Shown: in pieces, positions 43,387 through 45,897 of the stretch
Layout of the letters: each line of letters opens with the position of its first letter
How positions within the stretch are numbered: position 1 is the stretch's first letter
The notes under the pieces: generated by a model
Database searches by the model: none
What the model was told of the DNA's origin: nothing
Seen by the model: the letters and a program-made list of their open reading frames with translations, nothing else
Translations under genes and position numbers: made by a program
Source: Candidatus Bathyarchaeota archaeon
GTDB lineage: Archaea; Thermoproteota; Bathyarchaeia; Bathyarchaeales; Bathycorpusculaceae
Assembly (NCBI GenBank): GCA_963767735.1
Contig: CAVYES010000007.1
Location: 128,001-192,000 of the forward strand
DNA length: 64,000 nt
Direction of reading: 5' to 3'

Positions 43387-44376
43387 ATGGCAAGTGAAAA
43401 TCGAACCGAAAAAGCGATGAAGATTCTGAACGAAAAAAGCGAAAAAGCACGTGCCATTGTAAAACATTCAATCCTTGAAAAACAAATTGGAATAGGGAAA
43501 GTAGACAAGGCTATTGGCCAATATCTTTCAAGATGGAATGATACCACTCGACCCGGCGTGCTTGCGCTCGCCTGCGAAGCAGTAGGCGGAAAAAGAGAAG
43601 TTGTGCCTTTGCAGGCTGCATTATTATTCATCGATGCCACAATGGATATTCATGACGACATCATTGACGAGTCAGTCACTAAGAAGAACAGGAAGACAGT
43701 TTATGGTAAGATAGGGAAGGAGGCGACCTTACTTATTGGTGATGCGTTCATGGTTGAGGGCTTCTACTATCTTCACAAAGCAATAGAAAACCTTCCGACA
43801 GCCCAGAAACTAATGATTATGGACGGAGTAAAAGATTTTCTTTCAGAAGTGGTGGAAGCGCACATATCCGAGGCTCCTTTAAAAACAAAAAAATCGAAAT
43901 TAAGACCCGAAACATACTTCCAGATTTTGACAAAAAAAGCCGCTGATATCGAGGGTCACATGAAAGTGGGCGCTATCTACGGCTGCGGCTCGGCAAAACA
44001 AATAGAGCTTATGAGTAATTATGGGAGAAATATAGGCATTCTTTTGGCGGTAAAATCGGAATTTGTTGACGTTTTTGAGCCTAAGGAGCTTACGCACAGG
44101 ATAAAATATGAAGTCTTACCGCTTCCAGTTCTTTACGCACTGAGAAGCCCTAAATATGGGAAGCAGATCCGAGAAATCTTGAAAAGAGATTGCCTCACCA
44201 ATGAGGATTGTAGAGAGCTTGTAGAAATTGTCTACGAGACAAAAGAGATTGCACTCTTAAAACTACGCATGAAAGATTTAGAAAAAGAGGCGATTATTAC
44301 AACAGATTTACTATCAAACAAAAAGGTTAAAGAAGAGCTTCAGCTATTGGCGGCTTCCATGATAGAAGACCTATAA
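43387..44376 (+). CDS. Polyprenyl-synthetase-fold protein with intact FARM and degenerate SARM (ComQ-like prenyltransferase candidate)
   Basis: DIHDDIIDES, LLIGD, KKAA; SARM position reads KSEFVD. Confidence 0.85.
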   Translation: MASENRTEKAMKILNEKSEKARAIVKHSILEKQIGIGKVDKAIGQYLSRWNDTTRPGVLALACEAVGGKREVVPLQAALLFIDATMDIHDDIIDESVTKKNRKTVYGKIGKEATLLIGDAFMVEGFYYLHKAIENLPTAQKLMIMDGVKDFLSEVVEAHISEAPLKTKKSKLRPETYFQILTKKAADIEGHMKVGAIYGCGSAKQIELMSNYGRNIGILLAVKSEFVDVFEPKELTHRIKYEVLPLPVLYALRSPKYGKQIREILKRDCLTNEDCRELVEIVYETKEIALLKLRMKDLEKEAIITTDLLSNKKVKEELQLLAASMIEDL

Positions 44377-44380
44377 ATAC

Positions 44381-44431
44381 TTACCAAGCAAGTACCTTTG
44401 GTTTTTTCCTAATTGCTCGACGCTTCTCCAT
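44381..44431 (-). CDS. 16-aa basic peptide MEKRRAIRKKPKVLAW (candidate prenylated-Trp precursor; not in ORF track)
   Basis: Minus strand: GACAAAG-CTTATAAG promoter, AGGTGAGGAGAA SD, ATG...TGG TAA. Confidence 0.65.
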   Translation of the reverse strand: MEKRRAIRKKPKVLAW

Positions 44432-44562
44432 TTCTCCTCACCTGTATATCTGTTCAACACCTCTACGCTTATAAGCTTTGTCATTATACAAGACACGAAA
44501 AGCAACAAACATAGCTAAAATTAATATTAACAATCCGCAAAATTAGTATTCATAAACGCGCT

Positions 44563-45897
44563 GTGCTTAGTAGAGAGAAAATGCGCAAAATCCAAATCAG
44601 AGAGTCCTTTCCTTCACTATTTCTGCTGATCAATAGCATTGTCTGGTTCTCTCTCTCATGGCTACTTATTCAAAACTACATAGGCAACACTTCTTTCAGC
44701 AACATTTTGCTCGTATCATCCGCCTATTTTGGGGCACTTCTCTTATCAGCCATAGTTGGAGCTACATTGCTGCGTAAGAAATTAGCAGGAAAAATCGCGT
44801 TGTTATCATGGGTTTCGCTTGGAGCAGTCGCATGCCTGCTTTCGGCAGTTTTGGTTCATGGGGCAAGTTCGATCGGCCTGGTTTTTTTTTCAATTCTTCT
44901 CGGTGCATTGGCTGGATTAGGTATCCCAACTTGCCTCGCATTATTTTCAGAAGTTACAAAATCAACTAATCGCGGACGCAGCGGAGCAATAGTATTCTTT
45001 CTTATTCAAGCAGTGACGGTTCTAATCTATATTCCCGCTATCAATATAAATGTTGATAACGATTTCTTGGTTCTCGCTGCATGGAGAATCGTGGGCGTAC
45101 TAAGCATATTTTTCTGGGTGCCTCATGAGAAAATTTCTGAGCAGAGCAAAAGTAAGCTCTTAAGCATCATTCGTGAAAGAACTGTTTTTCTCTTATTCAT
45201 TCCATGGTTTCTACTCACCACCGTAAACTTCGTGGAACAGCCTCTAATCCAGCATTACTTTGGAACAGACCTGTACAACACCTACCAGATGGTCGAAATC
45301 GTAATTATTGGCGCTTCAGCTTTTATCGGAGGAGTAATTTGCGACTTCAGAGGACGAAAGGTTTCAGGTATTATAGGCTTTATCTTGTTAGGCGTAGGCT
45401 ACGCTTTTCTAAGCCTTTTATCTGGAACCCAGATTTCCCAAATTCTATGGGTCTTGTGTGATGGAGTTGCTTGGGGATTCTTATATGTTACATTCATCTT
45501 CGTTGTCTGGGGAGATATTTCCCAGGGAAGAGTCCCTGAAAAGTATTACCTTTTAGGCGGCATACCGTTTCTATTATCCAACTTGATCTCAGTTTTGGTC
45601 CAACCTTTTGTAGAGTATGTTCCAATAACCACTTCGTTCTCTTTTGCCAGCTTCTTCTTATTTGTAGCAATTTTGCCTCTACTGTACGCCCCTGAAACTC
45701 TGCCCGAGAAAGCCCTCAAAGACAGAGACCTAAAGGGATACGCAGAGAAAGCCCTTAAGCAGGCCAACAAGGAGGCAAGCAAAAACCAGAAAAAAGATTC
45801 AGCCAAGGCTGAAAAAGAAAACGCGAGCGGAAATGAAGAGTCTGAAGAGAACCCTGCATATGAGAAAGCTCGAAAGTTAGCGGAAAAATACTATTAA
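44563..45897 (+). CDS. MFS-fold membrane protein
   Basis: About 12 TM helices, NRGR, DFRGRK, APETLP; charged C-terminal tail. Confidence 0.8.
   Translation: MLSREKMRKIQIRESFPSLFLLINSIVWFSLSWLLIQNYIGNTSFSNILLVSSAYFGALLLSAIVGATLLRKKLAGKIALLSWVSLGAVACLLSAVLVHGASSIGLVFFSILLGALAGLGIPTCLALFSEVTKSTNRGRSGAIVFFLIQAVTVLIYIPAININVDNDFLVLAAWRIVGVLSIFFWVPHEKISEQSKSKLLSIIRERTVFLLFIPWFLLTTVNFVEQPLIQHYFGTDLYNTYQMVEIVIIGASAFIGGVICDFRGRKVSGIIGFILLGVGYAFLSLLSGTQISQILWVLCDGVAWGFLYVTFIFVVWGDISQGRVPEKYYLLGGIPFLLSNLISVLVQPFVEYVPITTSFSFASFFLFVAILPLLYAPETLPEKALKDRDLKGYAEKALKQANKEASKNQKKDSAKAEKENASGNEESEENPAYEKARKLAEKYY

Follow-up and report, generated by a model that had tools for sequence, protein, structure and literature searches.

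A candidate strain-variable cassette of Bathyarchaeia comprising a trans-isoprenyl-diphosphate-synthase-like protein, a cationic micro-peptide and an MFS transporter

Described peptide prenylation systems and the present locus

The closest described counterparts of the locus considered here are systems in which a protein with the fold of a trans-isoprenyl-diphosphate synthase (trans-IDS) attaches a prenyl group to a Trp residue of a small peptide. The locus lies at positions 43387–45897 of a 64-kb window (the whole stretch of 64,000 nucleotides that was analysed) from a Candidatus Bathyarchaeota archaeon, and holds a trans-IDS-like gene, an uncalled micro-gene and a transporter gene. The described enzymes include ComQ, StheQ, PalQ and the P domain of ChrPC. 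ComQ of Bacillus carries a first aspartate-rich motif (FARM) together with a pseudo form of the second (SARM) and prenylates an internal Trp of ComX (PMC10853753), whereas StheQ of Sphaerobacter, with N-D-x-x-D as its SARM, modifies the second-to-last Trp of the 69-aa StheX (bioRxiv 2026.08.29.745113). PalQ requires Trp as the last residue and favours GW and GGW endings (PMC10853753, PMC13290415). In the parts of a 2026 review of peptide prenylation that were accessible, the characterised trans-IDS-like peptide prenyltransferases all target Trp and share a Gln just upstream of the SARM, which positions the indole, and archaea are mentioned only for archaeol lipoproteins (PMC13290415). The comQXP genes are described as strikingly polymorphic between close relatives (PMC4408185), and a census from 2014 places comQXPA-like loci in Firmicutes only (PMC4008528).

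A preliminary description of this DNA, made from the sequence alone, had proposed a ComQ/ComX-like system and stated that no such system was described in archaea. On the second point we agree: our searches of the full-text literature turned up no archaeal example of a prenylated peptide, a ComQ-like system or a peptide pheromone. To our knowledge, the Bathyarchaeia are abundant, poorly understood and known only from enrichment cultures. The three genes that concern us are:

43387–44376, plus strand: 329-aa trans-IDS-like protein (the enzyme), assigned from its PF00348 match, motif conservation and fold
44381–44431, minus strand: uncalled micro-gene of 16 codons, MEKRRAIRKKPKVLAW, whose translation ends in a stop codon
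44563–45897, plus strand: transporter of the major facilitator superfamily (MFS), 444 aa from a GTG start or 438 aa from the ATG at 44581 (Pfam MFS_1, E 3e-14)

Judged from sequence comparisons, these genes form a cassette that varies between strains and whose three parts evolve together: a presumed transferase of the trans-IDS type, a cationic micro-peptide without leader and an MFS transporter. As in the ComQ/ComX and StheQ/StheX pairs, the enzyme has a trans-IDS fold and a FARM, the first Asp of its SARM is replaced, and a small adjoining gene encodes a product that, in the window and in 64 of 98 homologues, has Trp near its C-terminus. As in comQXP, the enzyme, the peptide and part of the membrane protein are polymorphic between close relatives. 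The differences concern both peptide and partners. ComX and StheX have 55–69 aa, whereas the archaeal peptides are leaderless and have 12–23 aa; the comQXPA genes are co-directional, whereas the archaeal peptide gene is convergent with the enzyme gene and on the opposite strand. An MFS protein stands in place of the histidine kinase ComP, no ComA is present, and the linked regulators are of the PadR type; the neighbours of the enzyme and peptide genes in the window are the MFS gene, a radical S-adenosylmethionine (rSAM) gene, an integrase gene and a gene for a zinc-finger/DUF5752 protein, with neither ComP nor ComA among them. Unlike ComQ and StheQ, the archaeal enzyme lacks the Gln upstream of the SARM and belongs to a lineage beside the archaeal geranylgeranyl diphosphate (GGPP) synthases, and unlike the ComX-type peptides, 34 of 98 archaeal peptides have no Trp in the tail.

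Some of these features are nearer to PalQ/PalX of Paenibacillus alvei, where the acceptor Trp is the last residue; the window peptide ends likewise, as do 42 of 98 homologues. The GW and GGW endings that PalQ is reported to favour occur in several archaeal peptides. PalX has a leader of the nitrile-hydratase type and its cluster includes a histidine kinase, neither of which the archaeal locus shares. PalQ, set beside the archaeal enzyme here by description and not by sequence, forms its own cluster in the superfamily network. The canonical archaeal short-chain trans-IDS (1wy0, IdsA) resemble the enzyme in fold, FARM and length and are its best sequence matches; they differ from it in their motifs on the isopentenyl diphosphate (IPP) side, which are replaced here, and in being housekeeping proteins where the present enzyme sits in a variable cassette. 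Leaderless cationic bacteriocins, too, are small unprocessed peptides rich in Lys/Arg and Trp, with an adjoining transporter and a strain-variable locus, but they have ∼40–50 aa, are unmodified, are exported by ABC-type transporters and have no prenyltransferase-like partner. The ComQ/ComX likeness proposed earlier is sustained in part, by the conserved linked micro-gene, the FARM, the C-terminal Trp bias and the polymorphic module, and is not sustained as regards the Gln, the leader, the kinase and the peptides with Trp-less tails. By analogy, the archaeal cassette may work like ComQ/ComX, and we do not class it as a member of that family.

The micro-gene and its promoter

The gene at 44381–44431 translates as the preliminary description had stated, and the arrangement given there is borne out: the stop codons of the micro-open reading frame (micro-ORF) and of the enzyme gene, which ends at 44376, are separated by 4 bp, and the MFS gene runs divergently from the micro-ORF on the plus strand. 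Homologous loci were drawn from the genomes of relatives (35 of 61 with a match), from metagenome contigs (80 loci) and from species-representative genomes (21 loci). Nearly all carry the taxon label Bathyarchaeia, with one Baldrarchaeota and one Thermoproteota. The closest loci examined are at most 72% identical; enzyme homologues that are 84–93% identical (P0001–P0005) have surrounding DNA that is not among these loci. The same-strand MFS gene lies directly 3′ of the enzyme gene in 105 of the 106 unique loci with enough sequence, and the enzyme-to-MFS spacer, ∼180–220 nt long, carries a recurrent minus-strand ORF of the micro-gene kind.

Under a strict definition (minus strand, 9–45 codons, at least 30% K+R and a [KR]..P[x][RV] core no more than eight residues from the end), a micro-ORF is found at the equivalent spot in 70 of the 108 non-redundant loci, compared with 0/108 for the plus strand and, over 100 dinucleotide shuffles, with 0.44 on average and 2 at most. 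A looser score accepts the micro-ORF in 98/109 loci, and several of the 11 that it rejects still resemble diverged or frameshifted copies. Among the 98, the start codon is ATG in 83 and an SD-like (Shine–Dalgarno) 4-mer lies 4–16 nt 5′ of the start in 77; the median stop-to-stop distance to the enzyme gene is 4 nt. Examples of the homologous peptides are MEKAKAARKKPRVLFW, MKATKEVRKKPVRFSI, MEKARKAVEQKTVPKKPRVYWW, MKKRPKLKVRYFWWP and MAKKRKKNVPVRWGSGWFTV.

The conserved Arg of these ORFs is encoded by all six of its codons (AGA 14, CGA 11, AGG 11, CGT 6, CGG 5 and CGC 5), and the conserved Pro and the conserved Val by all four of theirs. This count is partly circular, since the ORFs were anchored on the peptide motif; its point is that nucleotides vary while residues stay constant, which argues for selection at the peptide level. 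From these sequence patterns we consider the micro-ORF to be a genuine conserved gene and not a chance ORF. None of seven homologous peptides of 20–23 aa was found in 15 billion predicted proteins, so gene callers evidently miss the micro-gene, and the locus offers a clean example of a functional gene of fewer than 25 codons that escapes them. Pfam and NCBIfam scans of seven peptides of this length at E up to 10 returned only a GAS2 match at E 0.1, which we take as noise, and an Rfam scan of 44200–44700 matched no family.

We also note two kinds of irregular locus. The micro-ORF is interrupted by a single-base indel in L047 and within an A run in L149, both in cassettes that adjoin an rSAM gene; these breaks are either homopolymer sequencing errors or decayed copies. 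A motif scan of a genome with four enzyme copies (G168) found no micro-ORF in the enzyme-to-MFS spacers of its loci L182–L185. The enzymes of these loci are 25–34% identical to that of the window, and the one clear motif match, in L185, lies outside the spacer; judging by sequence, the micro-gene may be absent there or may have diverged past recognition.

The promoter region of the micro-gene contains the following elements:

44432–44442, minus strand: short 5′ leader with Shine–Dalgarno (SD) sequence, AGGTGAGGAG
44443–44459, minus strand: conserved 17-nt element TGTTGAACAGATATACA, recognised by its recurrence and overlapping the predicted transcription start
44469–44483, minus strand: TFB-recognition element and TATA box (BRE/TATA), GACAAAG-CTTATAAG

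Upstream of the micro-ORF the minus strand reads gacaaagcttataag...caggtgaggagaaATG, and both the SD, with GGTGA, and the BRE/TATA-like element that had been ascribed to the gene can be read in it, in the order GACAAAG-CTTATAAG, 21 nt, AGGTGAGGAGAA-ATG. Across 59 aligned intergenic regions the BRE/TATA is conserved as AAAGCTTATAT. Some 7 nt past it lies a highly conserved GTGTTGAACAGATATACAGGTGA, the last bases of which are the SD, and in the aligned spacers an inverted copy of GTGTTGAACAGATATACAGGTGA is found across the TATA, toward the MFS gene. The palindromic TATA octamer could, on this arrangement, serve both divergent genes.

The 17-nt element is likely, from its sequence and distribution, to be an operator. 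The 17-mer TGTTSWACANATATACA has one match in the 64-kb window at up to two mismatches and three in the 3.04-Mb genome at up to one mismatch. A count over 123 unique loci (660 kb) gives 100 copies ahead of the micro-ORF, 64 inverted copies in the same spacer and 34 at other places, most of these 34 being 1.1–2.5 kb upstream, in the region of the PadR genes. Among the 49 loci whose sequence reaches at least 2.5 kb 5′ of the enzyme gene, 26 have two divergent PadR genes (Pfam PadR matches at E 2e-19 and 5e-21) directly before it, and many of these PadR-flanked loci are outside the genus of the window. The window's own genome (G000) has the orthologous PadR1/PadR2 pair (71% identity) at 524193–525068 of its contig 4 (L174, L178), divergent and unlinked to the cassette; one of the three genomic matches of the 17-mer lies in the PadR1/PadR2 spacer, 41 nt upstream of PadR1. 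The gene after PadR2 on this contig encodes a 222-aa multi-pass membrane protein. The third copy of the element, with one mismatch, is on contig 6 at 407458–407474 (about 1501–1517 of L173, minus strand), ∼50 nt upstream of a 45-aa ORF.

Four sequencing runs were compared over 43000–46000, one of which is an RNA library (a peat metatranscriptome, as contigs). The RNA library yields a single 227-nt contig, which matches 44208–44433 with no mismatch and includes the entire micro-ORF. Its end lies 2 nt 5′ of the ATG and 25 nt past the T-run at which the enzyme transcript would stop; the contig gives a weak hint of a minus-strand transcript starting at about 44446, the predicted site. Positions that no RNA contig covers are uninformative about expression. 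DNA contigs of X1, X2 and X5 match at 99% or more where they cover the stretch and contain no variants; X1, X2 and X5 are possibly the source samples, in which case they carry no independent information.

The enzyme family, its peptides and block exchange

The enzyme matches Pfam PF00348 (polyprenyl_synt) at E 6.4e-21 and falls under every NCBIfam cut-off, the top model being IdsA (89 bits against 468). Aligned to the GGPP synthase 1wy0, it keeps the FARM as DIHDDIIDES, has KSEFVD opposite WDDVLD, replaces GKxxRP by WNDTTRP and has KK after the FARM where canonical enzymes have RR; for the enzyme itself, these motifs agree with the preliminary description. GKxxRP, RR, FQ and a full DDxxD are the IPP-side motifs of chain-elongating trans-IDS. 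An alignment of 243 family members shows how far these departures extend. The FARM residues D90, D91 and D94 are present in 242 of the 243, the remaining row being gapped, in a pattern D-I-H-D-D-I-I-D-x-S...K....T. Elsewhere the family has W-x-D-x-T-R-P-G for GKxxRP, K-x for RR and L-[A/L/I/T] for FQ, and its SARM is [S/A/D/E]-[D/E]-F-V-D in place of DDxxD (S-E-F-V-D in the window, with E225 and D228). The first SARM position mostly holds S (122 members), A (57), D (32) or E (25); the second is always D or E and the fifth is D in 241, the acidic character of E225 and D228 being retained in all 243. Position −3 to the SARM holds mostly A (134), L (26), I (24) or T (22), and position −1 R (195) or K (36). 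About three quarters of the family thus have a pseudo-SARM, x-D-x-x-D, with the first Asp lost. The term SARM-less, used earlier for this enzyme, is too strong, as the motif is degenerate and not missing.

On the evidence of the alignment, the family has lost the IPP-side signatures and has kept an invariant FARM. The same genome encodes two canonical paralogues with GKRFRP, RRG and YQ..DDxxD, so the enzyme is not needed for GGPP supply. Its AlphaFold2 model (mean predicted local distance difference test score, pLDDT, 94.4) has a trans-IDS fold. In a Foldseek search the best PDB match is 1wy0 (TM 0.82) and the top matches are GGPP and long-chain synthases, with the indole prenyltransferase Ord1 (9v4h) only at rank 22 (TMq 0.71). 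For the MFS protein, no PDB relative was found at E ≤0.01.

This is a small, specialised family. A profile search gives 191 representative clusters among 1.84 billion at E ≤1e-30. Of 301 genomes sampled from the class, 90 contain a member, with a concentration in a few taxonomic families, and in a protein atlas the enzyme family appears only under Bathyarchaeota-dominated clusters. Some representatives (P0122, P0144 and P0165) have 410–557 aa, with the match in the C-terminal part, and are either fusions or gene calls merged with the upstream gene.

The 98 peptides have 12–23 aa (median 17), with 36% Lys+Arg, 4% Asp+Glu and Cys in only two, and no leader region is found within this length. Trp is the final residue in 42, a type that includes the window peptide; it is within the last three residues in 60 and within the last seven in 64. 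The expectation that homologous loci would carry a conserved Trp-terminal micro-ORF holds for the ORF (98/109 loci) and less generally for the Trp (last in 42/98). What all the peptides have in common is not Trp but a basic stretch and, after it, P-[VI]-R.

The three parts of the cassette vary together. Over 861 pairs from 42 complete loci, enzyme identity correlates with MFS identity at r 0.89 and with rSAM identity at r 0.23, and in many pairs the rSAM proteins are 80–91% identical while the enzymes are only 28–36% identical. The nearest relative found (G018) illustrates the pattern: its flanks are 86–88% identical to the window in DNA and its rSAM protein 90%, yet the enzyme is 35% and the MFS protein 38% identical, and the peptide, MKKAKKKEVPVRVLP, differs from that of the window. 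In 75 pairs the N-terminal part of the enzyme (residues 10–125) exceeds the C-terminal part (140–325) in identity by 25 points or more, for example 98% against 46%, and no pair has the C-terminal part more identical by 20 points or more. These recurrent breakpoints inside the enzyme gene imply that the unit of exchange runs from the C-terminal half of the enzyme through the peptide to the MFS protein, at least most of which is included. On these sequence comparisons, the unit is swapped as one block between otherwise near-identical genomes. The peptide pocket of StheQ is formed by helices from its C-terminal half (bioRxiv 2026.08.29.745113).

On the right-hand side, DNA homology to G018 resumes at 45554 within the MFS gene. 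MFS protein identity to G018 is 48% over residues 321–360, 75% over 361–400 and 47% over 401–440, and the C-terminal tail is conserved in all allele types. A right-hand mosaic breakpoint in the MFS gene was considered and dropped, as the pattern is indistinguishable from purifying selection and identity rises only gradually.

A further sign of exchange lies just upstream of the enzyme gene:

42829–43155, plus strand: frameshifted, truncated remnant (about the first 120 codons and upstream region) of a B-type enzyme allele, identified by blastx and DNA identity

In blastx this remnant is 66–75% identical, in two frames, to the B-type genes of L011 and L020, and its DNA is 72% identical to the 5′ end of the syntenic G018 gene. 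The remnant indicates that the present cassette displaced or joined an older allele, through either replacement of a cassette or decay of a tandem copy. Tandem cassettes occur in G012 and G042, and G168 has up to four enzyme copies.

Proposed function, rival explanations and neighbouring genes

Our best reading, drawn from sequence features and put forward tentatively, at somewhat less than even confidence, is that the tail of the peptide is prenylated and that the MFS protein then exports the product. The enzyme would bind an allylic prenyl diphosphate through its invariant FARM and would no longer condense IPP. The prenyl group would be moved onto the aromatic, usually Trp-containing, C-terminal tail of the peptide, with the basic N-terminal part and the K-K-P-V-R core as recognition handle, and the cognate MFS protein would export the lipopeptide. 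A PadR protein would repress the divergent peptide and MFS promoter by binding the 17-nt element, controlling its own gene as well, and the extracellular product would act as a strain-specific signal or as a membrane-active weapon. The block pattern fits a specificity module, without proving one.

Several observations weigh against this proposal. (i) The first SARM position is acidic in 57 of the 243 family members (L130 is an example), and no Gln column is found in these 243 to match that of the known Trp prenyltransferases. (ii) The closest match of the enzyme, in sequence as in fold, is archaeal GGPP synthase and not Ord1. (iii) Of the 34 peptides with Trp-less tails, 24 have only F or Y and 10 have no aromatic residue, and one entire lineage with variable enzyme C-terminal halves has only Trp-less peptides. 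(iv) No enzyme column tracks the presence of Trp in the peptide beyond phylogenetic signal; the columns with the highest mutual information (Trp versus non-Trp) are mostly N-terminal and phylogenetic-looking, and none is at the FARM or the pseudo-SARM. (v) Physical linkage alone yields three-part co-variation, which does not prove interaction. (vi) The loci are mutually related, and all counts given here describe the sample and not independent events. (vii) On the RNA side there is a single contig without strand information, and its library may contain DNA.

That the cassette is conserved, regulated and hypervariable suggests that cells of Bathyarchaeia interact with one another, by signalling or by antagonism. 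In its fullest form the proposal becomes one of strain-specific communication or kin discrimination, in which a micro-peptide is lipidated by an independently evolved transferase, exported by a matched MFS protein and sensed by PadR at a shared operator, with ancient 'pherotype' alleles kept under balancing selection and shuffled by recombination in the enzyme gene. This we regard as rather doubtful; if true, it would be the first archaeal peptide pheromone system and the first archaeal prenylated RiPP-like product (RiPP, ribosomally synthesised and post-translationally modified peptide). Should the enzymes prenylate short unprotected peptides, the natural allele pairs would be a ready library of peptide-lipidation catalysts with matched substrates.

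It is possible, though not probable, that the enzyme and MFS protein instead make and export or import a small isoprenoid, and that the micro-protein is an unmodified accessory or regulator which, for example, gates the MFS protein, titrates PadR or acts on membranes. That the universal peptide feature is the basic stretch with P-[VI]-R and not Trp, and that the family is without the Gln of known Trp prenyltransferases, would both be expected in this case. MFS pumps under PadR control that react to hydrophobic compounds are common, and tails such as RYFWWP, RIRWWQWWG and RFRFWWP resemble Arg/Trp-rich membrane-active peptides. However, the deep allelic diversity, recombining as a block of enzyme half, peptide and MFS protein, is hard to explain for a small-molecule pathway beside an unrelated peptide; the peptide gene occurs only where the enzyme or the MFS gene does; and the C-terminal Trp bias is left without a cause.

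The next alternative involves the gene that follows the MFS gene:

45899–47056, plus strand: rSAM/SPASM protein of family TIGR04084 (NCBIfam, 303.5 bits against a cut-off of 225)

In the window this gene starts 2 nt past the MFS stop, and an rSAM gene follows the MFS gene in 30 of 50 loci; the two are probably co-transcribed. The peptide could then be a RiPP precursor of the rSAM protein, carrying for instance a Lys/Arg-to-aromatic C–C crosslink, with the prenyltransferase-like protein as second tailoring enzyme or chaperone. Scores of the rSAM protein on peptide-maturase models (PapB 1.1e-30, DynA 5e-18, ryptide 1.3e-10) agree with such a role, and the conserved K-K-P-V-R-aromatic core could provide a conserved enzyme with its handle. 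We nevertheless find this explanation unlikely. The rSAM proteins are 60–90% identical where peptide and enzyme types are unrelated, and the correlation with the enzyme is the low one given above. Of 61 relatives, 49 have TIGR04084 (38 of the 43 high-quality genomes), often as a lone gene, compared with 35 of 61 for the enzyme; among the control genomes, that of Sulfolobus acidocaldarius has it too. In 14 of the 16 TIGR04084 loci examined, neither an MFS gene nor an enzyme gene adjoins, and in these 14 the micro-ORF motif is never found beside the rSAM gene. The CxxxCxxC motif starts at residue 19, with no N-terminal extension of the RiPP recognition element (RRE) type, and the scarcity of Cys in the peptides is a further point against a substrate role. 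The comparison thus places the rSAM gene outside the variable module, and it does not appear to be a dedicated partner of the peptide.

Very unlikely, in our estimate, is that the conserved feature is non-coding, namely a bidirectional promoter and operator together with either an antisense RNA or an oligo-T terminator for the enzyme gene, the ORF being incidental or a regulatory leader. DNA conservation is indeed higher in the 17-nt element and the TATA than in the ORF; on the plus strand the KK codons read as a T6 run immediately after the enzyme stop, at the position expected of an archaeal terminator; and a transcript from the micro-ORF promoter would run antisense into the enzyme gene. 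Yet the amino acids are constant over codons that vary through every synonym of Arg, Pro and Val, start, SD and stop are kept in 98 of 109 loci at lengths of 12–23, the opposite strand and the shuffles yield no equivalent ORF, and Rfam has no matching family. Finally, an ordinary GGPP synthase gene beside a chance small ORF, as the source annotation names of homologues (which include 'geranylgeranyl pyrophosphate synthase') and the best fold match would have it, is hardly credible given the sub-threshold NCBIfam scores, the family-wide loss of IPP-side motifs, the two canonical paralogues and an ORF conserved far beyond chance.

With regard to the rSAM gene itself, the sole convincing micro-ORF among the 16 TIGR04084 loci is in L155, which has the MFS gene. 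In this locus (G005 contig 28) a run of N lies ∼150 nt beyond the micro-ORF, exactly at the expected position of the enzyme gene, and the missing enzyme of this genome may be an assembly artefact. A role of TIGR04084 as an archaeal lipid radical SAM enzyme was considered and dropped: the Grs, Gmm and Ted types are described as B12-binding, and SPASM goes unmentioned in the accessible portion of the preprint concerned (bioRxiv). A full-text literature search found no paper naming 'TIGR04084', and among the matches listed for 'AF0577' all are apparently unrelated by title, the only part on which this judgement draws.

One further feature adjoins the rSAM gene:

47080–48390, minus strand: tyrosine-integrase gene, ending 23 bp past the rSAM gene

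A tyrosine-integrase gene, or only its last 20–45 codons, abuts the 3′ end of the rSAM gene in the window and in L041, L042, L149, L170 and L182, which suggests that this end is a recurrent integration site of an integrative element. On the other side, between a CBS-domain gene and the cassette, a 173-aa ORF (42162–42683, plus strand) encodes a protein with a C2H2-type zinc finger and a weak DUF5752 match.

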